A stretch of 64,000 bases of DNA from the NCBI GenBank assembly GCA_036337435.1, contig JAYZEG010000011.1, positions 32,001 to 96,000 on the forward strand, written 5' to 3'. The position numbers and the translations under genes were made by a program. The stretch's first letter is position 1, and each line of letters begins with the position of its first letter. Below, in pieces: positions 32,000-63,642 of this stretch. The notes below the pieces were generated by a model, which had not been told where the DNA came from, did no database searches, and saw nothing but the letters and a program-made list of their open reading frames with translations. This stretch comes from Myxococcota bacterium. GTDB lineage: Bacteria; Myxococcota_A; Bradymonadia; UBA7976; UBA1532.

Positions 32000-32234
32000 A
32001 AAAAATGAAATGAAGTCAAGAACTACTTGAATTTCTAGGGTCCGCATTTTTGTAAACACCTGAAGGCAATCAGTAAAAAAGTTCGAAAAAAGTTGTAACC
32101 AATCTTCAATCCCTGTTCTCCTCCATCGTACAACTTTACCGCGGGCGTCAAATCTCGAGGAGGCGCGCCCTTTCAAAAAACAGTACTGGCAACGAACTAC
32201 GGGTCTGATGAGCCAGTCCAACCGGGAGTATTTC

Positions 32235-46084: not shown

Positions 46085-47020
46085 TCAGCTCGCGGTGGTT
46101 CTCATGGCCACGACGTCTCTAATGCGATTGGCCATTTCTTCAAGACCCAAGACCTCGCAGCCCGCGATGTCATTTCGCGCATCAGCACCACCAAGCCAAA
46201 TTTGGATTTGGTCCGGTAAGATCGTTCGTAGGCGTCTGACGTAGGCGCGCTGGGTGCCCAACGGCACGTTGACCATCGACAAAGCAAGTGCGAATGGATG
46301 CTGTTTTAAAACGGCTTGGGCTACGATGTCGGCGGGTAACTGAGGCCCCAGGTTGATGACTTCTGCGCCGGCATCCGCCGCCACTCCAGCGGCGATCAAG
46401 AGACCAAGTTCGTGCTGTTCATCGTCAGGCGTTGTGAAGACAACCTTGGGCGCATTTGCGGGCGTCGAAGATGAATCGAATGTCCGCAATAACAGGCTCT
46501 TTAACGCTGCCGAGAGCAGATGTTCGGTCGCCATTGATATCTCGCCCTGCTCCCACAATGTGCCGACGCGTGTGAGCAAGACCCGGCAAAAGTGTGTTCT
46601 GAACGTTGAGGGTCCAAGTAAGCGGTATTGTATGCCCAAGCAGCGCTCAACATTTGTCGCGTCTAATTCCTTAGCATACCCGATCGCCTCCGTCACACTT
46701 CGGGGATCGAGAGTGACGTATTCGCCCTTTCGGGAGCTGCTTGGTCGTTCAACCGCTTTCGTCCGGACCGTCCCAGCGAGCTGTGCCAAAATCGCTTGGT
46801 CAAGCTCAACCAAGTCACTGATACGATGTCCGGCATCGACGGCAGCACCGAGAAGCTGAAACCGCTTTAGATGCGACTCAGTGTATCGCCGTGTGCCTCC
46901 CTCGGATCGAAGGGGCGTCACAACGTTGTACCGTCGCTCCCACGCTCGGATCGTGTGCGCGCTCAAGTTTGCAAGTTGTGCGATCTTACCAATCGAGTAT
47001 GTTTTCTGCTGCTCTGCCAA
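46085..47020 (-). CDS. carH: MerR-family adenosylcobalamin-binding photoreceptor/repressor (CarH/LitR)
   Basis: MerR HTH (YSIGKIA...TIRAWERRY...RSEGGTRRY); W-x9-EH (WEQGEISMATEH); ExHxxG (EQHELG); TTG start. Confidence 0.92.
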   Translation of the reverse strand: MAEQQKTYSIGKIAQLANLSAHTIRAWERRYNVVTPLRSEGGTRRYTESHLKRFQLLGAAVDAGHRISDLVELDQAILAQLAGTVRTKAVERPSSSRKGEYVTLDPRSVTEAIGYAKELDATNVERCLGIQYRLLGPSTFRTHFCRVLLTRVGTLWEQGEISMATEHLLSAALKSLLLRTFDSSSTPANAPKVVFTTPDDEQHELGLLIAAGVAADAGAEVINLGPQLPADIVAQAVLKQHPFALALSMVNVPLGTQRAYVRRLRTILPDQIQIWLGGADARNDIAGCEVLGLEEMANRIRDVVAMRTTAS

Positions 47021-47188: not shown

Positions 47189-47326
47189 AACGACGCAAGC
47201 CAGTTGAGAAAGTCGCAGAACGCATTCGATGCCAACTGTTCCCATAGTGAACTGTAAGGCAGCGGTGTGGGCCACGTCCGGCTCATTTGTCGGGCACAGC
47301 CAGCCAAAAAGAAAGGGCACGTTGCC

Positions 47327-47917
47327 ATGGGACGTCAAGCAAAGCCAGTCGTTGACACAAGCATCGTCGAAGCCGCTCAAGCGGGTGACTCGCGAGCTCT
47401 CGAGAAGTTGATCGGAGCGCACTATCCGGCGATGTGTCGCCTCGCTCTCCGCTATACCAACGACCCAGACCTGGCCAAAGATGCAGTGCAAGACGCGTGC
47501 ATTCAGGTCATGCGGTATTTCCCGCAGCTGCGCGATACAAGCAGCTTCAAGTCTTGGATGAGCCGTATCGTCATTAACTGCGTCCGATTACACCAGCGTC
47601 GGAATAAGAGATTTGTCGCGTTTGGCGATGGTATTGAGCGGACCCAAGAAGTTTGCCAGCAACAACCCGACGAAGTGGTGATGACCCGTGAAGAACTCGT
47701 CATTGTAGACGATTTTCTAAAGAGTGCCCAAAATGACGAACGGGCCATCTTTCTACAGCTTTACGTTGGCGGTGATGCGGTCGCGACTGTAAGCGAAAAA
47801 ACGGGCATCTCCGTCGCAGCACTGAAGACGCGCGTTCATCGAGCTCGGCGTCGACTTAAAAAATATATGCACACCAAGCATGACACGGATCTTGGCTTTG
47901 GCCAAATGGGTCTCTAA
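47327..47917 (+). CDS. ECF RNA polymerase sigma factor (LitS-like context)
   Basis: GD.RAL..L; AKDAVQDA; SFKSWMSRIVIN; G.S.AALKTRVHRARRRL. Confidence 0.92.
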   Translation: MGRQAKPVVDTSIVEAAQAGDSRALEKLIGAHYPAMCRLALRYTNDPDLAKDAVQDACIQVMRYFPQLRDTSSFKSWMSRIVINCVRLHQRRNKRFVAFGDGIERTQEVCQQQPDEVVMTREELVIVDDFLKSAQNDERAIFLQLYVGGDAVATVSEKTGISVAALKTRVHRARRRLKKYMHTKHDTDLGFGQMGL

Positions 47918-47997: not shown

Positions 47998-48969
47998 ATG
48001 GCATATTCGACTCAATCGAGCCCGGATTACGATAAACCACTACTCGGAATCAGCCGTTGTCTCCTCGGAGACACTGTCCGCTTTGATGGCGGGCACAAAC
48101 GGTCTCGCTACGCCGAGCAAACCCTCAGCCAGTATTTTCGATGGTACCCAGTCTGTCCCGAGGTTGAGTCTGGCATGTCTTCGCCCCGGCCCTCCATTAG
48201 GCAGGTTCGCGATGGAGGCGAGCTTCGTGTCGTGAGCGCGACGGGGGTGGATGTAACAGACGCGCTCAGGAAAGCGTCCGACAGGCGATTAGAGCAGATG
48301 CGTACAAAGCCGCTGCGCGGCTTTATCGTTGTGAATGATTCGCCGTCGTGCGGCCTGGAGCGCGTTCGAGTGTACGAGGGTTCTCATCCCGTTCGCACCG
48401 GGGTTGGAGTGTTTACAGCAGCACTCAGGAATGCGTATCCCAATATGCCAGTCGAAGAAAGCGGTCGTCTCAACGATGCACGCCTCAGAGAGAACTTCAT
48501 CCTGCGGGTCTATACATACCACCGGTTCAAAGAAATGGTCGACGATGGTCCATCGGTTTCCGATTTAATGCGATTTCACGCAGAGCACAAATACCTGTTG
48601 CTGGCCCACAATCCGTCGATGGCACGTCATCTCGGCGGACTGGTCGCGCAATGTTGCCGAGCAAACCTGGCGGCGGTACTGGCCGAATACGAGTCGGGTA
48701 TGATGGATTCGCTGGCCAAACCTGCGAAAGTAGGAGGTCATGTCGACGCCCTTCAGCACATCGTTGGTTTCATATCCGACCAGTTCACTCCAGAGACAAG
48801 CCAGCACATGCAGGAAACCATCGCGGCCTACGGTTCTGGTGAAATACCGCTGATTACACCGATTACGTTAATCAATCACTATCTTGCGGTTGCCGGTACC
48901 GATTGGGTCCGGCGGCAGTGGTACCTCAAACCGTACCCAGCCGCGTTATCATTGCGAAGTCGGATCTGA
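47998..48969 (+). CDS. DUF523(TudS)-DUF1722 fusion (YbgA / RudS-like 4-thiouridine desulfidase)
   Basis: GISRCLLG..VRFDGGHK, VCPEVE, SPSCG, EESGRL.D..LRENF, FH..HKYLLLAH, YL.PYP. Confidence 0.92.
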   Translation: MAYSTQSSPDYDKPLLGISRCLLGDTVRFDGGHKRSRYAEQTLSQYFRWYPVCPEVESGMSSPRPSIRQVRDGGELRVVSATGVDVTDALRKASDRRLEQMRTKPLRGFIVVNDSPSCGLERVRVYEGSHPVRTGVGVFTAALRNAYPNMPVEESGRLNDARLRENFILRVYTYHRFKEMVDDGPSVSDLMRFHAEHKYLLLAHNPSMARHLGGLVAQCCRANLAAVLAEYESGMMDSLAKPAKVGGHVDALQHIVGFISDQFTPETSQHMQETIAAYGSGEIPLITPITLINHYLAVAGTDWVRRQWYLKPYPAALSLRSRI

Positions 48970-52001: not shown

Positions 52002-53183
52002 CTAATTGGCCGTCGCGAGCTTTGCTTCGACAACCTGCGCAATGGAACGAGTTTTGTGAATCGCAACGAGTTCAAGACCAGCCGCATTGAGCAGGCTCTC
52101 AAATTCCGCTGGAGTACGCTCTTTACCCGCAAACATAGTCATCATCAGGAGGTCGATAGTCGTTCGTCCTCGTTCCATGTTTGACCGTTGTTTGTTAGCG
52201 GCACGACCCAGCTCGATCAAAATAATACGACTGTCTTGACTGGTCATTGCTGAAGCCAGGTTCGTTAAGATCTGCTCGCACTTTGAATCAGACCAATCGT
52301 GCAGAATGTTTCTCAGAACAAAGGCTGCACCGGCTCCGATTTTAGGAATTGTATCGTGATCGAAGAAGTCGCCACTCTGAAAGTTTAAGCGCCCTGACGA
52401 ATTTTCGCGATGATCGGATAGTGCACGCTTGCTCTCCTCAATGACTTTGGGGAGGTCAAAGATGGTTGCATTGAGTTTCGTATACTTGTCCATCAACGGG
52501 AGAATAAAGGACCCTTGCGACCCGCCAATATCGATCACGCTGTCAAAACGAGACCAGCTGAAGTCGTCCATGACCGCGCGATCTGTAAAGGCGCTGCTGG
52601 CTGTCATCGCATTCGCAAATTGAGCATGACTCGTGGGTCTCGCCTCCAGGTAATCAGAGAAGAAATCCATGCCGGGTTGCTCATGGTACAGCTCAAAAGC
52701 TGATGCTTGCGAATTTAAGGCGTCCAATAGACGTGTCGAAGGCCCGTAGCAATCTTCGACCCAGTGAAAGAGTAATGGACGAATCGTATTTGGATGACTC
52801 TGGATTAAGACTTCGGTTTTTGCTGTGTTCATCCACCGCGCAGTCCCCATAGACCGTACTATTTTGAAGTACCCCTGCTGACAAAGGGCGTGCATCAAAC
52901 GTTCGATCCGATCAGGACAGGCATCCACTGTGTTTGCGATCTCTGCACTGGTCAGGGCGCGGCGATGGAGCATCTCAGGGATATTTAACTTTGCGACGGC
53001 ATACATCCACTGTGGCAGCATGAACATAGATGCATCCATGAGAGCCTGAACGGGGGCGGGCCGAAATCCGAGCCAGTTTAAAAATCGAAACAGCCACTTC
53101 GGTGGTAACCAGCGTAACTGATCTCGGAACGCTAGCGGTTGGCTGTCGGACCCAGACGGATCGATTTTCGAGGTGGTTAACAC
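52002..53183 (-). CDS. Dimerisation-domain O-methyltransferase (ASMT/COMT/CrtF-like)
   Basis: IDIGGSQG, GDFF, LRNILHDWSD, DLLM...GKERT. Confidence 0.9.
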   Translation of the reverse strand: MLTTSKIDPSGSDSQPLAFRDQLRWLPPKWLFRFLNWLGFRPAPVQALMDASMFMLPQWMYAVAKLNIPEMLHRRALTSAEIANTVDACPDRIERLMHALCQQGYFKIVRSMGTARWMNTAKTEVLIQSHPNTIRPLLFHWVEDCYGPSTRLLDALNSQASAFELYHEQPGMDFFSDYLEARPTSHAQFANAMTASSAFTDRAVMDDFSWSRFDSVIDIGGSQGSFILPLMDKYTKLNATIFDLPKVIEESKRALSDHRENSSGRLNFQSGDFFDHDTIPKIGAGAAFVLRNILHDWSDSKCEQILTNLASAMTSQDSRIILIELGRAANKQRSNMERGRTTIDLLMMTMFAGKERTPAEFESLLNAAGLELVAIHKTRSIAQVVEAKLATAN

Positions 53184-53307
53184 TGGCTTGACTATCCTTG
53201 TGGGTCAGCATGAGGCCCGGGCGACGAATCTAATATTGGCCGTCAGCGGTGGCTGGTTTGTCGGTCACACCGCTGACATCCAATGGGTCTTTTTGGTCGC
53301 CGACCGC

Positions 53308-54039
53308 CTACTCTTGGGGTGGGCCATTCTCGCAGACATCAGCGAAGGTCGCGTCCACAGTCCGTGCCAGCCCGATAAGTATTCCGCACATGGTCTGTGT
53401 GCAGATAAGACCAGCTTGACCGCATTGGTCCTGAACGCAGCCTTCGTACAAAGGAATGTAACTGTCGTCTCCCAAGGGGTCGCATTGCTCGATAGCGCAG
53501 GCTGCAAAGAACGCACAAGCGGCGGCGCATTGTTCGTCACCGCCACCGGGACATTCAGGGCCGGCTGCTGGTGGAGCCGTATCGCATGCGACGCCGCATT
53601 CACCGTCGATGCACGTTGCTTCACAGCGAGGAACGGTCGAGCCAGCACAATCTGATGCAGCTACACATTCAGGCATTGGACCACCGGCCCCGCCTTCAGC
53701 ACCCGCACCACCGGCACCACCCTCGGCACCGGCACCACCCGTGCCACCGACTGCACCCGTTCCACCAGCACCGCCTTCAGCACCAGCACCGCCAGCACCA
53801 CCGATTGCACCAGTACCGCCAGCACCGCCCTCGGCACCAGCACCGCCAGCACCGCCAGCACCACCGGCACCACCGGCACCACCGGCACCACCGACCGCAC
53901 CGGCACCACCGGCACCACCTACTGCACCCGTACCACCAGCACCGCCGAAGTTATTGGTATCATCGGATGAACTGTCGCTCTCGCCGCCACAGGCAGCCAG
54001 AACTAAACTCAAAATAAAATAAACGCCTTGCTTCTTCAT
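53308..54039 (-). CDS. Lipoprotein with Gly-rich linker and Cys-rich C-terminus
   Basis: Lipobox LAAC; GAGGAGAEG repeats; many Cys in the C-terminal half. Confidence 0.8.
   Translation of the reverse strand: MKKQGVYFILSLVLAACGGESDSSSDDTNNFGGAGGTGAVGGAGGAGAVGGAGGAGGAGGAGGAGGAGAEGGAGGTGAIGGAGGAGAEGGAGGTGAVGGTGGAGAEGGAGGAGAEGGAGGPMPECVAASDCAGSTVPRCEATCIDGECGVACDTAPPAAGPECPGGGDEQCAAACAFFAACAIEQCDPLGDDSYIPLYEGCVQDQCGQAGLICTQTMCGILIGLARTVDATFADVCENGPPQE
53684..53948 (-). repeat. Coding Gly/Ala-rich repeat, same unit as 32318..32530
   Basis: gcaccacc/gcaccgcc arrays on the + strand. Confidence 0.88.
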
Positions 54040-54120
54040 TGCTTCCTTCTTTCAAACAGGCTTTCTGTGTTGCGATGTGTAACGCATCGATTATTCGTCG
54101 TCGGCGCTTGTAGCCGAAAT

Positions 54121-55419
54121 TTAACTTAAGTCCAAGGTTCTTGTTGCACCACTTTGCTCATGACCCAGCGCTCGCGCAGTGTTTTCGAGCCGATTTTGTC
54201 CTTGGCTGCGCAGCGGCATAACCAGTCCTGCTAAGAAAGCTGGGACATGCTGCAAAGGGAGTTTCCAGACTGCGCGTTTACCCATATTGGCTTCGAGAAA
54301 ATGAGTGAGCAGTCCCGGGCTACGTGATAACCCGCGGATCGCCAACCGTCTTAGGAGGGGCACTCTCGCCAACACGAGTGCCAGCTTGACCATGCGTACA
54401 CTTTTCCAGTAAATCCGAAAAATGCGCCGGCCAAGACCGCTTAGGTCATCCGCACCTAATCGATTGGTTCGCACCAATATTGGGAGCTCATGTGCTACAA
54501 CCTCTGCCTGCTGTAATGCCACGGAAAGGCCCTCTCCCGTGATGCCGTCCACGTAGCCCAGGGCATCACCCAACAGAATAGTTCGATCTTGGGTTGCAAC
54601 CTTTGCTTGGACTGCCAGTGGGCCCGTTGCTTGTTGATTAGATACGGTCTTACATCCGCTCACTCGTCTTTCTAGTTGGGGAAAGTTCTTTAACAGAACG
54701 GACATCAGATTTCGTCCAGCTCGGGCCGGTTTAAAACGTGATTTATCCCAAAGAAATGCGACTTCGACACGACTTTCAGACGAGGGTGTAACGTAAGCTT
54801 CTATTCCATTTGACCAATACACTTCGACGTGATTTGTCCACGGAGTAACCTGAAAGTGTTGGCGCGCGCCCCAACGCTTGTCCCTCACCGCTGGAGAACC
54901 GTCGAGTTTCAATAGTTTCCTGACTTTCGAATTTCGGCCGTCTGCACCGATCACGACAGCGGCTTTCATTCCGAACTGGCCGTCGATACCGCGAAGTTTT
55001 ATATCAACATGGGATTCGAATGATTCGATAGCCAGAAGCTGAGTCGACTCCATCAGGGTTACGTAAGGGCTGTCTTGGGCCGCCTTGTAAAGTGCATCGC
55101 TCAGTCCTGTTCTACGAATGCCATAACCAACCCCGCTGTCGAAGTTTGCTTGCGCGATCGCACCTTGGTCACAAATCCAGCGTATGCCATAAAATGCCCG
55201 GAGTGAATCATGATCGATCTGTTCGAAGATCCCCATTCGGTCTAGCGTTTCGACGCCACAAGGCATCAGGCCTTCGCCACAAACTTTATCGATTGGCCAT
55301 TGCTTCTTGTCGACAACCGTTACGAACAGCCGCCTTTTCGCGAGGGCTATCGCACAGGCGAGCCCGGCAGGACCGCCTCCGACGATGACAACATCCACTT
55401 TTCGTTGGGTAAGACTCAT
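54121..55419 (-). CDS. FAD-dependent monooxygenase (FtpE/SrsC-like)
   Basis: VGGGPAG, DKVCGEGLMP, IGADG, LGDA.GYVD.ITGEG. Confidence 0.88.
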   Translation of the reverse strand: MSLTQRKVDVVIVGGGPAGLACAIALAKRRLFVTVVDKKQWPIDKVCGEGLMPCGVETLDRMGIFEQIDHDSLRAFYGIRWICDQGAIAQANFDSGVGYGIRRTGLSDALYKAAQDSPYVTLMESTQLLAIESFESHVDIKLRGIDGQFGMKAAVVIGADGRNSKVRKLLKLDGSPAVRDKRWGARQHFQVTPWTNHVEVYWSNGIEAYVTPSSESRVEVAFLWDKSRFKPARAGRNLMSVLLKNFPQLERRVSGCKTVSNQQATGPLAVQAKVATQDRTILLGDALGYVDGITGEGLSVALQQAEVVAHELPILVRTNRLGADDLSGLGRRIFRIYWKSVRMVKLALVLARVPLLRRLAIRGLSRSPGLLTHFLEANMGKRAVWKLPLQHVPAFLAGLVMPLRSQGQNRLENTARALGHEQSGATRTLDLS

Positions 55420-55423
55420 GGAA

Positions 55424-57187
55424 TCACCGCGTTCGCTCGACAAGCCTGATGTGGCTTGCTCGATGTCGAATGTGTTGAACCAAACCACTGCCCATCTCTT
55501 TGAGGATGAGCCCACGGGTTACTTTTTTTCCAGCACTTAAGGTGCCGTTAAGCCAGCAACTTCGCGCTTCGCTGCGCCTAATTTTACCCGATGAGGTTCG
55601 TGGTAATGTGCCGGGGTCAAGTAATTCGAATTCGGATACGGACAGACCCACGCCGGCCTGAACCGCTGCAATGGCTTCATTGACCACGGCGTCTGCATCC
55701 ACATGCTCTCGCCCTTTTTCGGCCAGCAGAATCAATCGCTCACTACCGGCCTGCTCGTCATGAACTCCAAAAGCAGCGACACAACCAGGTCGAATTCCAT
55801 CAAGACCATCCAGGGATTGTTCGACGAGTGCGGGGTCATGATTTCGACCGTTTATGATGACGATGTCCTTTTCGCGACCGCACAGATACAGCTCGCCATT
55901 CAGAATGAAGCCTGTGTCTCCCGTATCGAGCCAGCCATCCTCGTCCAACGTCTCAGCGGTCGCATCCGGTCGGTTGAGGTAGCATTGCATGACGCCCGGA
56001 CTCTTCACGTGGACACGTCCGACTCGTGCGTCCGAGAGTTTGGCTCCGTCGCCGTTGCGAACTTCGATAGAGCAGCCGGCGAGTGGTTTACCGAGGGATG
56101 GAATTTGGCGACCGTCCGCCGTGATTTCCGCGATCCCTGATTGTTCCAACCGGTCTGCATCGAAATGGGTCCATTGTGGCTTCTGGTTGGGTTCTGAAAA
56201 GGTGACGGCCAGCGTCGCTTCCGCAAGGCCATAAACGGGCGTGATTGCGGTCGAGTCGAAGCCGACAGCCGAGAATCGACTTGAAAACTCCTCCAGGGTT
56301 CGCGGATGAACTGGCTCTGCTCCACACAGCGCCACTTTCCAGTTCGCTAGATCGAGGCCATCCAAATCGCAATCACGGGTCTTGTTCGCTGTGAGTCCGA
56401 AAGCAAAATTGGGAGCCACCGATATTGTCGCCTGGCTTTCAGACAGAGCTTGGAGCCAACGAACCGGTTTGGTCACAAACCGTTCTGGACCGAGCAGGGT
56501 CAGTGGCGATGAACTCACAACGGCCGAAATCATACAGCCAACGAGCCCCATGTCATGATAGAGCGGCAACCAACTGACACCGCTCCGTTCATCAGCGGCA
56601 ACCGGTAGGGCGTCTAAAATGGCGCGCGCGTTGTACAGGATGTTTTCATGGCTGAGAGCCACCGGTTTCGGATCACCGGTGCTGCCGGAGCTGAACTGGA
56701 TGGCTGCAATATCTGCGGCGGGTGCAGTCGGCGTGTATCCAACATGGCCATTTTTCTGCAGCTGCGCCACAGTGTGACAGCCGAGTTTTGGATCCGCCAT
56801 TCGCACAGGGGTCCCCAAAAGGGGCATCAACCGCTTATCGGTCAAAACGGCAGCGCACTCTACTGAAACCAGCATCTTTGCCGTGCGAATCTTCCACTCT
56901 TCGACTTTACCCAGTCGCGCTGGTGGATAGAGCGCCGTCGGCACCCCACCGGCAATGCAAACGCCGAAGAACGCTGCATAGAATTCTGGACCGGTGCCGA
57001 GAACAATGGCCACGGTGTCTTTAGGCTTTAGACCGCGATGGACCAAACTGTCTGCAACGGCGCGTGCGCTTTGCATTAAAATTTCGTAGCGATAAAACTG
57101 TGACCGGCCCGGATCAGACCAAAAGGTTACGCCGCTGACCCCCAGACTGGCTCGCTCTAAAGCTTGAATCAGCGTGTCAGCTTGCAT
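55424..57187 (-). CDS. Fatty acyl-AMP ligase (FtpD-like)
   Basis: QFSSGSTGDPK, SWLPLYHDMGL, PVYGLAEATL, WLDTGD, GR.KD, LPRTSSGK. Confidence 0.93.
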   Translation of the reverse strand: MQADTLIQALERASLGVSGVTFWSDPGRSQFYRYEILMQSARAVADSLVHRGLKPKDTVAIVLGTGPEFYAAFFGVCIAGGVPTALYPPARLGKVEEWKIRTAKMLVSVECAAVLTDKRLMPLLGTPVRMADPKLGCHTVAQLQKNGHVGYTPTAPAADIAAIQFSSGSTGDPKPVALSHENILYNARAILDALPVAADERSGVSWLPLYHDMGLVGCMISAVVSSSPLTLLGPERFVTKPVRWLQALSESQATISVAPNFAFGLTANKTRDCDLDGLDLANWKVALCGAEPVHPRTLEEFSSRFSAVGFDSTAITPVYGLAEATLAVTFSEPNQKPQWTHFDADRLEQSGIAEITADGRQIPSLGKPLAGCSIEVRNGDGAKLSDARVGRVHVKSPGVMQCYLNRPDATAETLDEDGWLDTGDTGFILNGELYLCGREKDIVIINGRNHDPALVEQSLDGLDGIRPGCVAAFGVHDEQAGSERLILLAEKGREHVDADAVVNEAIAAVQAGVGLSVSEFELLDPGTLPRTSSGKIRRSEARSCWLNGTLSAGKKVTRGLILKEMGSGLVQHIRHRASHIRLVERTR

Positions 57188-57440
57188 CTCGCATCTCCGA
57201 CTGTCGGTATAAAATAAGGCGCGCGATATCGTCGACAGTTTCGGGTGGATTATCTGCATCTTCACCCAGATACATTTCGAATTCGTTCTCTAATTCGAGG
57301 GCCAAACTCAGGAGACCGACACTATCCAATCCGAGATCAGCTTGTAGCCTCGCCTTTGGTCCCACCAAGCTTCGCTCCACCCCGCAGTGTTCTTCGAGTA
57401 TGTTTTTGATAACCATCAGGCAATCGGCATAGGTACTCAT
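57177..57440 (-). CDS. Acyl carrier protein (FtpC-like)
   Basis: DLGLDSV phosphopantetheine site; acidic; 87 aa; overlaps both neighbours. Confidence 0.92.
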   Translation of the reverse strand: MSTYADCLMVIKNILEEHCGVERSLVGPKARLQADLGLDSVGLLSLALELENEFEMYLGEDADNPPETVDDIARLILYRQSEMRDAS

Positions 57441-58015
57441 GACGTCCGTCCAATCGGTAAAAAGCGATTTTTATTTTCAAACGTTGCCTCATAATTATTA
57501 AGTCGGCTGAGTTCTCTCTCTTCCGTTCGGATGCGCACCAGTAGCAACCATGCGTTTGCGATGCTGAAAACAGCGGCCGTAATCCAGCCATTGAAAATAA
57601 GTGGAAGAGCCGCGATCTCGAGTACAACCCCTAAATAATTGGGGTGTCGGATGAATCGGAAGATGCCCTCGTTAACGACTCGAGCGTGAGGCAACACAAT
57701 GATCCGTGTGGTCCATCGAGGGCCTAGCGTTTTAATGGCGATCAGCCGCAGCGCTTGACCCGCAATGAGCAAAGCGAGTCCCGTGACAACGAGAAAGACC
57801 GGTGGGGTTTGATTTCGCCATAGTGCTTCACCAACGCAGGCGAAAAGCCAAATGGTATGAAGGCTTGCCATCACAGGGTAGTGTCCTGACCCGACCTCGA
57901 TTGCACCTTGTTCCAAAAGGCGCTTCGTATTGTGTTTTGACAAGCGCAGTTCAAGTAACCGCTGGACCGAAACGACCAGGACGAGTCCGATGTATAGTGT
58001 CGTGCTTGCAATCAT
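57437..58015 (-). CDS. Isoprenylcysteine carboxyl methyltransferase family protein (FtpB/SrsB/BpsB-like)
   Basis: QRLLEL..S..N, HY..M...H, LG.RWTTRI, RHPNY, RI..EE. Confidence 0.92.
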   Translation of the reverse strand: MIASTTLYIGLVLVVSVQRLLELRLSKHNTKRLLEQGAIEVGSGHYPVMASLHTIWLFACVGEALWRNQTPPVFLVVTGLALLIAGQALRLIAIKTLGPRWTTRIIVLPHARVVNEGIFRFIRHPNYLGVVLEIAALPLIFNGWITAAVFSIANAWLLLVRIRTEERELSRLNNYEATFENKNRFLPIGRTS

Positions 58016-59079
58016 CAGTGCACCGTTTCTAACAAATTAAGCTCTGCGCAAAAGGCCGGGCCCATCGCAGCCATCATGCCAACCGAGCCGGCCGGCGGTA
58101 GATTCTTCATGCGTTCTCTAAGTACGAATAAAACTGAGGACGAACTCATATTCCCGTACCGAGCCAAACTGTCCCAAGACAGCGCCAGCGCATCTTCATC
58201 CAGACCTAACGCAGTCTCCATCGCCTTCATCACTTTGGGGCCGCCTGGGTGGGCTACGAGGAAATCGGGTCTCGCTTGCTCTAGGCCGGAATCGGCCATC
58301 AGTGCCTCCACCTCGGATGGGAGTTCTTCCGCGACGATCTTGGGTACGTCGGGTGACAGGACGACTTTGAACCCGCTGTCAACAACGTCCCAGCCCATCA
58401 CCCGTTCAGTGTCCTGAAAGAACGCTGACCTTGGGTTAGACCATCTGAGCGGTGCTGTTGCAGCCAGTGGGTGTTCATCTCCAACCATCAAGACAGCCGC
58501 ACAGCCGTCACCAAACAGACCAGAGGCAACAATGTTGGCCACTGACAAATCCTGTTTCTGGAGTGTGAGCGAACACAGTTCCACGGAGACCAGCAACGCC
58601 GCTTGATCTGGATGCCCGTCCAGATAGTCACCGACGCGATTAATACCTGCGACACCGGCTAGACACCCTAAACCGAACAAGGGCATCCGCCGCGTGTCAC
58701 GCCGGAACGGGAGTTGATTCATGAGACGCGCATCTAAGCTGGGTACGGCGAGCCCCGTGACGGTGGTACTGACGATCGCGTCAATGTCACTTGCATCTAG
58801 GGCCGCTGCGTCAAGCACTTTAGCGACCGCTTCTGTTGCCATCGGAACGGCGGCTTTGACCCACGCGGTATTGAACGATCCAAAGCCGGATAGCTCCTGG
58901 TATGCTTCCAGGGGGATTGCCAAATGTCGGCCTCCGACGAGCACATTACGTTGGAAGTCAATGATGCGCTGCGGATTAAAATACCGTTCCCGCCAGTCCG
59001 CCATCAAAGCGTCTGTGAGTTGATCCTGATCATAATAGTGCGGTGCAAGGCTGCACTCGACGCTGTGTATGTACGGCAT
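58015..59079 (-). CDS. Type III polyketide synthase (FtpA/SrsA-like)
   Basis: Catalytic triad GLGCLAG, AHPGG, YGNMSS; VELCSL, LFGDG, MGP. Confidence 0.96.
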   Translation of the reverse strand: MPYIHSVECSLAPHYYDQDQLTDALMADWRERYFNPQRIIDFQRNVLVGGRHLAIPLEAYQELSGFGSFNTAWVKAAVPMATEAVAKVLDAAALDASDIDAIVSTTVTGLAVPSLDARLMNQLPFRRDTRRMPLFGLGCLAGVAGINRVGDYLDGHPDQAALLVSVELCSLTLQKQDLSVANIVASGLFGDGCAAVLMVGDEHPLAATAPLRWSNPRSAFFQDTERVMGWDVVDSGFKVVLSPDVPKIVAEELPSEVEALMADSGLEQARPDFLVAHPGGPKVMKAMETALGLDEDALALSWDSLARYGNMSSSSVLFVLRERMKNLPPAGSVGMMAAMGPAFCAELNLLETVH

Positions 59080-60604: not shown

Positions 60605-61249
60605 TCTTCATCAGTGAGTATTCGCCAACTGCGATCCAGGCAGTCAGAGGTCCGTTTGTGGTGGTCATCTTTGGGGTCTTGTTTGCCAACAAACAGTCAT
60701 ATCAGCGACGCGCTCGATTAAAGCCTACTGAAATTTAACACGGCCACGTAGTGACGTTTCGAAGACTGAAAGCGAAAAGACCCTCTCCAGGTCACTGGGC
60801 GGTGAATGAAAACCGTGCCAGCGTTCGTCGCTCTAGCTGAATCGCACAGCAGTCCGAACGAGTCGATGCACACTGGGGCCGCTCTTCGCAACCGTCCCAT
60901 TCGCACACCAGAACGATCGCAGCAGGCATAAACGCTGCGTGACGGCCCGCTGAGACGCTGTCGGTTTGCCCACACTCCATCGGGAACCTAAAGGCACTTC
61001 CCATCAGCAGATCCAATCATCGTTATCCGCCAGGTCTCAATCCAGGACGACATACAGTCTGTCTTCGATCTGTTACAGTTTCGATGTAGACCGAGATGGA
61101 GGGTCAGTTCAGTCGAACGATCCGCGGTGGCCCAGACGCATTCTGCAACAGAATGTCTGGTAACCTTGGCGCATTGGACCGCATCTGCACAGTGGACCAG
61201 CCGTAATGTATATATCCGGCGTGTTATTTTTGTCAGGACCAGCGTGCTT

Positions 61250-62143
61250 ATGAACAGTCTAGTGACCGGCGCAACCGGTTTAATCGGTCAGGCCCTTATC
61301 AAACGACTCGACGACCCGGTCCTCATGTCTCGTCGACCGGAGGCATTGGCATCTGGGTCTCGTCTGAAATGGCCTGTGGACGCCGGCACCGCGGCACCCG
61401 ATCGGGCTGTTGACGTGGTTTTTCACCTTGCGGGAGAACCGGTTGCCGGACGTCGCTGGACTCAACAGCGCATGGATGAAATACGAAACAGCCGTGTTGA
61501 TGGGACTCGGCAGTTGGTTTCCTGGATTGCCAACTGGCCGTCGGCGCCAAAGGTGCTTGTCTGCGCGTCGGCTATCGGATTTTACGGAGACCGGGGAGAC
61601 GAAATTCTCGTCGAGAACAGTCAGCCAGGGTCGAGTTTTCTCGCCGAGCTGTGCCAGGACTGGGAAGCAGAGGCGGCGAAAGCCGAGGCCCTTGGCGTGA
61701 GAGTTGTCTTTGCACGAATCGGGATCGTCCTAGCCAAAAACGGCGGCGCCCTAGAAAAAATGCTGCCGCCGTTTAAGATGGGCATAGGTGGGCCGCTCGG
61801 GAGCGGGCGCCAATGGATGTCGTGGATTCATCTGGATGACGTTGTCGGTCTTCTCCTCCATGCGGCACACGCCGATATATCGGGACCACTCAACACAGTC
61901 GCCCCCCAACCCAGCACAAATGCCGACTTCAGTCGAGTCTTAGCGGGCCACCTCAGTCGCCCGTCAGTACTGCGCGCCCCGGCATTCGCCCTAAGGCTGG
62001 CCTTAGGGAAAATGAGCGACATTGTCCTCGCGTCCCAAAAAGTGCTGCCGCGGGTTGCTGAAGAAACTGGCTACGTCTTTCAACAGCCCACACTCGATGG
62101 GGCGATTAAATCATGTCTAAGAATCAAGGGAGAACAGCCGTGA
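61250..62143 (+). CDS. TIGR01777-family NAD-dependent epimerase (YfcH/SDR39U1-like)
   Basis: TGATGLIG, HLAGEP...RWT, ASAIGFYG, RIGIVL...GGAL, GSGRQWMSWIH. Confidence 0.95.
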   Translation: MNSLVTGATGLIGQALIKRLDDPVLMSRRPEALASGSRLKWPVDAGTAAPDRAVDVVFHLAGEPVAGRRWTQQRMDEIRNSRVDGTRQLVSWIANWPSAPKVLVCASAIGFYGDRGDEILVENSQPGSSFLAELCQDWEAEAAKAEALGVRVVFARIGIVLAKNGGALEKMLPPFKMGIGGPLGSGRQWMSWIHLDDVVGLLLHAAHADISGPLNTVAPQPSTNADFSRVLAGHLSRPSVLRAPAFALRLALGKMSDIVLASQKVLPRVAEETGYVFQQPTLDGAIKSCLRIKGEQP

Positions 62144-62631
62144 CGATTGAGCCCAATGGAAACGAATATATCCTTCATCAGGAACAGTTCATCGCCCAAC
62201 CGCTGAGCGAGGTGTGGGCCTTTTTTTCGAACGCAGAAAACTTAGAACGTCTGACACCCGATTTCCTCAACTTCAAAATATTGACACCGACCCCAATCGA
62301 CATGTTCGAGGGCACTTTGATCGATTACCGCATTCGGCTTTTCGGTGTCCCCATGAATTGGCGTACCGAGATCATACATCTCGAACCTGAGGTGCGCTTC
62401 GTAGACCAGCAACTCAAGGGACCCTACGCAAAGTGGTACCATGAGCATCGATTTGAGGAGGTTGACGGTGGTACGCTGATGACCGACCGGGTCGAATATC
62501 GAGTTCCTTTTTCAGCCCTAGGACATCTGGCTCATTCGGTGATGGTAAAGCGCACTTTGCAGCGTATCTTTCAATATCGATATGACGCCGTGAGTGAGGT
62601 CTTCGGCGAGCCGTCCGAGCAAGCTGCCTAG
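62140..62631 (+). CDS. SRPBCC (START-like) family protein
   Basis: VWAFF...NL..LTP, FVD.Q..GPY..W.HEH.F, IF.YR; GTGA overlap (alternative ATG at 62113). Confidence 0.9.
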   Translation: MTIEPNGNEYILHQEQFIAQPLSEVWAFFSNAENLERLTPDFLNFKILTPTPIDMFEGTLIDYRIRLFGVPMNWRTEIIHLEPEVRFVDQQLKGPYAKWYHEHRFEEVDGGTLMTDRVEYRVPFSALGHLAHSVMVKRTLQRIFQYRYDAVSEVFGEPSEQAA

Positions 62632-63395
62632 GGGTCGGGGTGCATGATCAACTCGAGTCGCCGCAAGCACTCAAAACTCCATTGAGCGACCGTTTGGAAA
62701 TCACGCACTGTCGGAGACTCTGCATTCACGTCCAGCTTGCCTAACCACGCTTCATCAACAGCAATGGGCTCACCGAAAAGGACTCGCACCTGTTGACCAC
62801 GCTTGGGCACTGTGGTGCCGATGGGCAACAGTTCGTGCATACCATAATGGTAGAATGGAGCCAGCATAGGTTTTGCGTCGAGGATCAATTGGCCAATGCC
62901 CAATTTGAACGGTGTTTTCATCCTCGCATGTTCGTCTCGAGTTCGCCCACCTTCTGGAAAAATATGAACCCAATCTCCCAATTTCAGTCTCTCGGATAAA
63001 AAGGTTAAACCGGGCTGGTCGAGCCCTGCACCCCTGACGATGGGTACGCACTTTCCTGCAGCCGAGATGAAGCCCTTCAATGCGCTTCCGTAAAAGTTCT
63101 TATGGTCTGCTCCGATCCACCGGACATCCGAGAATTTCACTCGGCCCAAGTTAGAGACCAGTAGGGGATCATCAAAGAGAGAAACGTGATTACTAAACGA
63201 TAAGATGCCACGCTTTGTTGTTTGAAACGCGGAGTCCCAATTTTGCCGCTCAATAAACTCAAGATGATTTAATTTGGTCATCACAAATCGTGAATAGCCG
63301 ACGACAGCAGCACATAGAATTTTTTGATACGGGCGCGCTTTAGGATTCCAATGACGTAATTCAAAGTCCAAATCCAATGCATCTTTATCTGACAA
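62628..63395 (-). CDS. Tafazzin-like lysophospholipid acyltransferase/transacylase
   Basis: [10 protein letters not shown] (HxxxxD), [39 protein letters not shown]. Confidence 0.88.
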   Translation of the reverse strand: [255 protein letters not shown]

Positions 63396-63642
63396 GAGCC
63401 TGCCCTTTCGTCACCGGAGAACCATGTCGTTCTGGTATCGGTTCTCACCAGATAGAAGGTTATCACCGAAACCAGGGCAGTAACATGTGCATCGCAGAAC
63501 TATTTGTTTTTCTCTGGGAGTCATGGGATTTTGAAAAGCGGCCTCCACGGTAACTCCTGTCGGGTTTGGAGTATCCAGGTGGCTCGGGTCGCTTACAGAC
63601 TGATCTTGAAAATCACTGCGTGCGTGTCTAGGAGGGAGAGAT

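Follow-up and report, generated by a model that had tools for sequence, protein, structure and literature searches.

The 64,000-nucleotide stretch of Myxococcota DNA analyzed here (the window; positions 32,001 to 96,000 of contig JAYZEG010000011.1, assembly GCA_036337435.1) contains, close to its end, a gene for a 255-amino-acid (255-aa) acyltransferase. Judged from its sequence, this protein is very probably a bacterial member of the tafazzin family, that is, of the PF01553 glycerolipid acyltransferase branch in which all eukaryotic tafazzins lie. Eukaryotic tafazzin, which remodels cardiolipin, is a phospholipid-lysophospholipid transacylase; mitochondrial cardiolipin owes its final acyl chains to this enzyme, which is lost in Barth syndrome. 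PlsC uses acyl-acyl carrier protein (acyl-ACP) or acyl-coenzyme A (acyl-CoA) as donors. The gene and the N-terminal segment of its product are located as follows:

62628..63395, minus strand: putative tafazzin-family acyltransferase gene, an intact open reading frame (ORF) of 255 aa with a TTG start and a match to PF01553 (1.9e-14)
63270..63332, minus strand: codons of residues 22-42, an N-terminal helix in the structural model, predicted to lie at the membrane surface

The list of ORFs holds a single one with exactly the boundaries 62628..63395 (-), and the TTG start is backed by the two closest relatives (P0002, 88%; P0003, 82%), since both align from residue 1. The gene is bacterial and not a contaminant, because the 127,885-base contig carries bacterial genes around it and 60 related loci lie in bacterial metagenome-assembled genomes (MAGs). 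Its GC content (0.47-0.52) falls inside the range of its surroundings (0.46-0.60), the nearest related loci are of the Myxococcota/Bradymonadia type, and seawater and marine metagenome runs contain this DNA.

We then compared the protein with named tafazzins, which our searches gathered from plants, green algae, and chlorarachniophytes and from mammals, birds, a frog, amphioxus, insects, and nematodes. BLASTP gave 34% identity to rat tafazzin over 199 aa (E value of 2e-29), a protein of similar length (263 aa), and 32% identity to a walnut "Tafazzin family protein" over 215 aa (8e-36). Among 1.84 billion representative proteins, the matches that followed the dozen or so closest bacterial-type clusters included eukaryotes from EukProt/MMETSP (37-39% identity; 6e-32 to 1e-27). 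Conversely, a tafazzin-family query from Bigelowiella recovered the bacterial family at ∼1e-33 to 1e-24, and labels of 1-acylglycerol-3-phosphate acyltransferase appeared only from 5e-9. A profile built from 26 bacterial members scored all 21 named eukaryotic tafazzins at 115-189 bits, with the plant and algal "Tafazzin family proteins" (∼450 aa; Juglans, Gossypium, Coccomyxa) at the top (174-189 bits). The same profile gave 33-70 bits to 24 AGPAT-like proteins (labeled 1-acylglycerol-3-phosphate acyltransferase) and 0-28 bits to 8 of the 10 other PF01553 proteins of the genome, the remaining two being long multidomain proteins that were left out of the scoring. The PlsC model TIGR00530 scored the window protein at 19.6 bits, against a cut-off of 102.95, and four paralogs in the same genome at 94-100 bits. 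No NCBIfam model reached its cut-off with the protein; the best match, acyl-[ACP]--phospholipid O-acyltransferase, had 28.7 bits and was far below it. Pfam assigned the general domain PF01553 alone, and the ESM Atlas contained generic "acyltransferase" clusters only.

The predicted fold agrees with these comparisons. An AlphaFold2 model made on the family alignment had a mean pLDDT of 89.7, and Foldseek placed it first with 7zkq_T (1.4e-11), the tafazzin of Yarrowia lipolytica in a complex I assembly intermediate, ahead of PlsC (8.8e-10). VIA-align gave Z scores of 21.5 for 7zkq_T (226 residues, root mean square deviation of 3.4), 17.7 for PlsC, and ∼16 for glycerol-3-phosphate acyltransferases. 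The Yarrowia protein is thus the best match among solved structures in both sequence and fold: it was the only convincing hit of a sequence search of the PDB (4e-6; one other hit at 0.59), which up to an E value of 10 matched no PlsC, Thermotoga maritima 5kym included. The identity to 7zkq_T is just 18-22% over the aligned part, and the Yarrowia protein is ∼100 residues longer, with insertions. In the model, residues 22-42 form a helix that can be aligned with rat tafazzin's N-terminal segment, to which it appears homologous. Kyte-Doolittle averages over 19-residue windows of the protein did not exceed 0.97, so that no classical transmembrane helix is expected, and we found no signal peptide-like or export segment in it.

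An ordinary PlsC paralog that had acquired tafazzin-like motifs by convergence would also receive the general PF01553 assignment, and PlsC (5kym, TIGR00530), which belongs to the same superfamily, has a similar size, and contains HX4D and FPEG, does give the second-best fold. However, the family profile separates tafazzins from PlsC and AGPAT-like proteins (at most 70 bits), the T. maritima PlsC is not matched by sequence, the genome contains four better candidates for PlsC, and the similarity to tafazzins spans ∼200 residues rather than isolated motifs. We regard such convergence as extremely improbable.

A preliminary description of this DNA, made from its sequence alone, had proposed a phylogeny with tafazzins and PlsC-type proteins as a check of its claim that the gene encodes a bacterial tafazzin. 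We built two such trees, and branching of the window protein inside ordinary bacterial PlsC was not observed in them. The FastTree phylogeny (260 rows, rooted on the PlsC-type paralogs of the genome and the AGPAT-like proteins) placed 137 of 137 representative hits of at least 200 aa on the tafazzin side of the outgroup (support of 69) and recovered clade A, the bacterial clade to which the window protein belongs (99), as well as a clade with all 21 named eukaryotes (95). In the IQ-TREE phylogeny (98 rows, site-heterogeneous LG+C20 model), the SH-aLRT values were 85 for the ingroup versus the outgroup, 92 for clade A, 100 for clade B, a further bacterial group, and 98 for the eukaryote clade; the window protein stood beside that of locus L012 in a Myxococcota/Bradymonadia subclade (99). 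In both trees, the protein belongs to a bacterial clade grouping with eukaryotic tafazzins, apart from PlsC-type proteins, and on the evidence as a whole its membership in the tafazzin family is well supported. As far as these data can tell, the bacterial proteins do not appear to be nested in the eukaryotes, nor the eukaryotes in the bacterial proteins.

We also ran a constraint test in which clade A was held together with the outgroup. Under the constraint, clade A simply took the most basal position within the tafazzin ingroup and did not move into PlsC, and the test is therefore informative on the branching order of the ingroup, not on nesting within PlsC. Since the constrained tree was as good as the free one (PMSF lnL of -45479.4 versus -45481.6; AU p of 0.68 versus 0.32 under LG+F+G4), we treat as equivocal the order in which the eukaryotes, clades A and B, and a small unlabeled basal group branch.

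Three segments of the protein carry residues typical of the family:

63165..63194, minus strand: codons of residues 68-77, with the catalytic dyad of HX4D (His70 and Asp75) and, next to it, the family-specific pair Asp76-Pro77
62949..62972, minus strand: codons of residues 142-149, WVHIFPEG, the tafazzin variant of acyltransferase motif III
62823..62858, minus strand: codons of residues 180-191, a tafazzin-type HxGM motif, which aligns with PLWHVGMNDVLP of rat tafazzin

All five motifs quoted in the preliminary description are present in the translation of 62628-63395 (-), at residues 68-79, 91-93 (VRW), 114-149, 163-171 (FKLGIGQLI), and 180-191. The tafazzin motifs that it had given for the human enzyme are seen in rat tafazzin P0502 at residues 67-76, 116-124 (GKCVPVCRG), 144-151 (WVHIFPEG, identical to that of the bacterial protein), 166-171 (GIGRLI), and 182-193 (PLWHVGMNDVLP). 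H70, D75, D76, and P77 are invariant across the 26 family members. In the alignment, H70 and D75 fall on the rat counterparts of human H69 and D74, the catalytic role of which is described in the available text of PMC4412953. D76 and P77 are common to eukaryotic tafazzins and have frequencies of 0.00 and 0.08 in the outgroup rows. In motif III, W142 and H144 are missing from every outgroup row and V143 has a frequency of 0.17 there, and all three are common to clade A, clade B, and the eukaryotes; H183 and M186 have frequencies of 0.96 and 0.87 in eukaryotic tafazzins versus 0.00 and 0.08 in the outgroup. In total, 11 positions, these and Gln127 among them, are common to the bacterial clade and the eukaryotic tafazzins, and each is found in at most 0.2 of the outgroup rows. 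The bacterial protein therefore has in common with eukaryotic tafazzins (human TAFAZZIN, yeast Taz1, Drosophila) a fold, the HX4D dyad, DDP, Q127, WVHxFPEG, and HxGM. We also mapped, via rat P0502, 20 Barth syndrome positions taken from the accessible part of PMC4412953, assuming that rat and human numbering are the same and checking this by the residue letters: 14 of the 20 are identical in the bacterial protein, and one more is conservative. Together with the profile scores, the PDB sequence and fold matches, and the trees, the 11 signature residues bear out the earlier statement that the match goes well beyond generic PlsC motifs. Clade B keeps HX4D-DP, Q, and WxHxFPEG, but in it Trp replaces the conserved Arg92 and Phe replaces His183.

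To see how widely the family occurs in bacteria, we used a search of 5.8 billion proteins, which returned 311 relatives; the 120 listed have 214-329 aa and 44-100% identity. Among these 120, JGI names 18 "monolysocardiolipin acyltransferase" and 3 "1-acyl-sn-glycerol-3-phosphate acyltransferase," and the NCBI name for the relatives is "lysophospholipid acyltransferase family protein." The JGI/IMG "monolysocardiolipin acyltransferases" are members of the same bacterial family, their names being automatic. A scan covering one genome per prokaryotic species yielded 69 loci, all of them in MAGs of uncultured organisms. The 60 loci of clade A are distributed, by the submitters' labels, over Chloroflexota (21), Myxococcota (18), Pseudomonadota (9), Acidobacteriota (4), Spirochaetota (2), and Bdellovibrionota (1), with 5 unplaced. 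The more distant clade B (320-465 aa) comprises 8 loci, 7 of them in Myxococcota (L072-L079, e.g., L074:5505-6815). The preliminary description had cited CarF/TMEM189 as a precedent for lipid enzymes common to myxobacteria and eukaryotes, and in light of these counts its myxobacterial framing was too narrow. Among genomes of the same phylum as the window, a profile search detected the gene in only 16 of 401; for its family the count was 2 of 17, both belonging to the window's genus.

This patchy occurrence, the scattered phyla of the carriers, the fact that all records are MAGs, and the presence of the DNA in seawater and marine metagenomes are what one would expect if a marine bacterium had captured a eukaryotic tafazzin gene that later spread between phyla. 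However, the bacterial clade is not nested among the eukaryotes, the clade containing the eukaryotes is monophyletic (SH-aLRT of 98), and the early branches of the family include clade B and probably a second bacterial group, namely the small basal one, whose assignment to bacteria is a lead only. A 2026 preprint, in its available text, reads the signal in the opposite direction, as a Myxococcota donation to early eukaryotes (10.64898/2026.05.08.723234). A eukaryotic origin of the bacterial family is, in our view, quite unlikely.

We then looked into the surroundings of the gene in the window. It is solitary, with one convergent and one divergent neighbor:

63396..63642: divergent intergenic region, the presumed promoter region, with a purine-rich GAAAGGG upstream of the TTG (as read from the sequence)
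63643 onwards, opposite strand to the tafazzin-like gene: start of the divergent upstream gene, for a 1027-aa beta-propeller/Big_5 protein
62113..62631, plus strand: convergent neighbor, for an SRPBCC/polyketide-cyclase-type lipid-binding protein (PF03364, 8.8e-12)
61127..62143, plus strand: epimerase-family/DUF1731 gene (PF08338 and PF01370)

The end of the SRPBCC gene overlaps the 3' end of the tafazzin-like gene by 4 bases. The DUF1731 epimerase is the sole neighbor that is also present in the closest relatives, where its homologue is convergent to the tafazzin-like gene (L012 and L013), and synteny with the window is limited to these two. The epimerase/DUF1731 and SRPBCC genes (61127-62631) overlap each other by ∼30 bases, and both converge on the tafazzin-like gene. 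Contigs from seawater metatranscriptomes (4 runs from two studies) cover positions 62100-62352, 62466-62710, and 62614-62773 only, with identities of 95-99% or higher where the SRPBCC and tafazzin-like genes meet tail to tail (62466-62773). They take in the SRPBCC gene and the final ∼150 bases of the tafazzin-like gene; as these RNA-library contigs are strandless and carry-over of DNA is possible, they are no more than a hint of expression, and the stretches without coverage carry no information.

The neighbors of the gene were clustered and annotated at 58 loci of the family. We rejected a conserved neighborhood as a functional clue: the largest common neighbor, a gene for a DUF1295 protein, is found in 9 of the 58 loci, all in Chloroflexota. 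A cardiolipin synthase or phospholipase was never a recurrent neighbor at these loci, and an alpha/beta hydrolase recurs in 3. DUF1295 proteins are membrane proteins of a steroid-reductase/ICMT-like superfamily, and in 8-9 loci of the Dehalococcoidia type (including L025:6795-7385, L027:6750-7580, and 6-7 more from Chloroflexota) their gene lies downstream of the tafazzin-like gene, in the same orientation. A functional partnership of the two proteins is possible, in Chloroflexota only.

Farther away in the window, we found light-response genes and a cluster of the phenolic-lipid type:

46085-47020: MerR/B12-binding CarH-like regulator
47267-47917: ECF sigma factor, divergent from the CarH-like regulator
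47998-48969: DUF523/DUF1722 gene (2-thiouracil desulfurase family)
52002-53183, minus strand: O-methyltransferase of the phenolic-lipid-type cluster
54121-55515, minus strand: flavin monooxygenase of the same cluster
55424-57265, minus strand: AMP-binding enzyme of the same cluster
57437-58015, minus strand: ICMT-like methyltransferase of the same cluster
58015-59079, minus strand: type III polyketide synthase of the same cluster

The cluster at 52002-59079, which by its gene content looks like an alkylresorcinol or alkylquinone pathway, lies 3.5-10 kb from the tafazzin-like gene and separates it from the light-response genes, which are 13.7-15.6 kb away. The preliminary description had placed the gene next to a photo-oxidative stress island and suggested that its product might repair oxidized lipids. 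The distance and the intervening cluster speak against the first point, and the gene context lends no support to the second, as the 58 related neighborhoods have almost nothing in common.

The proximity of the type III polyketide synthase, ICMT-like, AMP-binding, flavin monooxygenase, and O-methyltransferase genes, the lipid-binding SRPBCC protein encoded by the convergent neighbor, and the DUF1295 membrane protein encoded downstream on the same strand in Dehalococcoidia could all be taken to mean that the substrate is a nonstandard lipid, such as an aminolipid, one with an acylated head group, or a phenolic lipid made by the nearby cluster. Yet no neighbor is kept throughout the family, and the gene is isolated, its flanking genes being convergent on one side and divergent on the other. 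We consider a substrate of this kind improbable.

Next, we surveyed the lipid enzymes encoded in the genome. Besides the tafazzin-like protein, it contains four PlsC-type paralogs and one YihG-like protein. Because four separate PlsC-type enzymes are present, the tafazzin-like protein would be an accessory enzyme rather than the housekeeping lysophosphatidate acyltransferase. There are also four matches to patatin-like lipases, which may plausibly supply lysolipids. One PgsA-like CDP-alcohol transferase was found, together with phospholipase D-type proteins with two HKD motifs that match no cardiolipin synthase model. The genome further encodes a protein resembling bifunctional inositol-1-phosphate cytidylyltransferase/CDP-inositol transferases (L086:1255-2781; NF041135, 246 bits, below the cut-off) and a second CDP-alcohol transferase of the inositol-phosphate type. 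Taken together, the inositol-type transferases and the lack of a detected ClsA-type synthase are a hint of an unusual head-group repertoire.

The explanation that we favor, with moderate confidence, is that the product of the window gene is a bacterial tafazzin-family enzyme that remodels or repairs the acyl chains of phospholipids. The protein would sit on the cytoplasmic face of the inner membrane via its N-terminal helix and would return an acyl chain to lysophospholipids, possibly those produced by the four patatin-like lipases, and this re-acylation would adjust or repair the acyl chains of membrane phospholipids.

Several points weigh against this explanation or against a close functional equivalence with mitochondrial tafazzin. 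The split between ingroup and outgroup is only moderately supported in both trees (69 in FastTree, 85 in IQ-TREE), with long outgroup branches. The "eukaryote" clade consists mostly of metagenome and transcriptome rows without labels, so that its purity is assumed: eukaryote-named rows make up 21 of its 140 rows in FastTree and 14 of 45 in IQ-TREE, and 20 unlabeled rows that we traced led to eukaryote sources or eukaryote-derived records in 7 cases and to JGI labels in 6, the rest being nameless. No lipid-metabolism gene is conserved at the 58 annotated loci. As regards the substrate, a ClsA-type cardiolipin synthase (TIGR04265) was not found in the host genome (87% complete); of 15 other Myxococcota carrier genomes, 5 had any match at 1e-10, only 2 of these strong, and 10 had none, among them one that belongs to the same genus and is 100% complete. 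Finally, of the residues proposed from a model to contact the cardiolipin phosphates in the available text of PMC4412953 (three of the four were compared), R123 is kept and K106 and K152 are not.

Eukaryotic tafazzin differs from the window protein in being mitochondrial, and the latter belongs to a separate clade and to a genome in which no ClsA-type synthase was found. The preliminary description had proposed a bacterial ortholog that remodels cardiolipin; membership in the tafazzin family is well supported, and cardiolipin remodeling finds no support in the synthase searches. Cardiolipin seems unlikely to be the main substrate, and phosphatidylethanolamine or phosphatidylglycerol would be the more likely one here.

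We next considered the acyl donor. CoA-independent acyl transfer, the defining property of the family, cannot be read from sequence or fold, and we know of no sequence marker for the choice of donor. We tentatively suggest that the donor may be another phospholipid, in a CoA-independent transacylation as carried out by tafazzin; acyl-CoA or acyl-ACP could also serve and ranks second in our estimate. The latter would apply if the protein, albeit of the tafazzin family, were an ordinary donor-dependent enzyme transferring acyl groups from acyl-CoA or acyl-ACP to lysophospholipids, CoA independence having arisen in the eukaryotic branch only. Motif III is relevant here, in that the arginine found behind FPEG in PlsC-type enzymes is retained in the bacterial protein (FPEGGRTR) but not in animal tafazzins (FPEGKV); its retention also counts against a tafazzin-like activity. 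In addition, the bacterial clade is separate from that of the eukaryotes, so that function need not transfer, and the best NCBIfam match, far below its cut-off as it is, is to an acyl-ACP-dependent type of enzyme by name. The plant tafazzin-family protein At1g78690 reportedly uses acyl-CoA. However, the plant and algal proteins named tafazzin, which have long N- and C-terminal extensions and fall within the eukaryote clade, have the same arginine (FPEGxRxR), and this residue therefore does not discriminate between donor types. Moreover, the four PlsC-type paralogs and the YihG-like one already serve donor-dependent acylation, and the residues that separate tafazzins from PlsC are all present in the window protein. 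We see a donor-dependent enzyme as possible, short of probable.

A more far-reaching version of the transacylase proposal, which we find doubtful, is that the bacterial proteins are true CoA-independent phospholipid transacylases, that remodeling of membrane acyl chains without an energy cost is a bacterial invention which operates in bacteria with little or no cardiolipin, and that the tafazzin of eukaryotes came from a lineage of this kind (Myxococcota, Chloroflexota, or a relative) rather than from the alphaproteobacterial ancestor of mitochondria.

The link between tafazzin and bacteria is not new, as it is already present in automatic annotation and in one preprint. In its available text, that preprint ("Origins of eukaryotic metabolism," bioRxiv 10.64898/2026.05.08.723234) counts TAZ among ∼20 components of early eukaryotic lipid metabolism that were putatively donated by Myxococcota, the entry being one word in a list. 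The phylogeny of Tian et al. (2012) set bacterial hits aside as too dissimilar, according to the accessible part of PMC3378450, and a 2025 review states, in the portion available, that neither alphaproteobacteria nor other prokaryotes have the enzymes of cardiolipin remodeling, the origin of which it recommends for study (PMC12136173). Our literature searches found no paper on a bacterial or prokaryotic tafazzin, its distribution, or its biochemistry. The window protein is therefore a new, uncharacterized bacterial member of a known family.

A family often described as missing from prokaryotes thus has bacterial members, and identities of 32-34% to animal and plant tafazzins together with the signature residues alter the picture of its absence. 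The bacterial proteins are small, of soluble size, and intron-free, which allows a direct study of donor choice, of membrane binding, and of whether transacylation predates mitochondria. They also provide a concrete case for the debate on nonalphaproteobacterial sources of eukaryotic lipid metabolism, with a caution for the view that Myxococcota were the donor, since Chloroflexota carry the gene at least as often.

Lastly, we looked at unusual forms of the gene within the family. Fused forms were rejected as a functional clue: six long frames (394-1212 aa) contain no Pfam domain besides PF01553 and, being stop-to-stop frames in GC-rich genomes, may not represent genuine extensions. One Myxococcota MAG carries two tandem tafazzin-like genes (L018:4234-6301; also G249:C31:55135-57171, possibly the same record), and these two pair with each other in the tree (support of 99).

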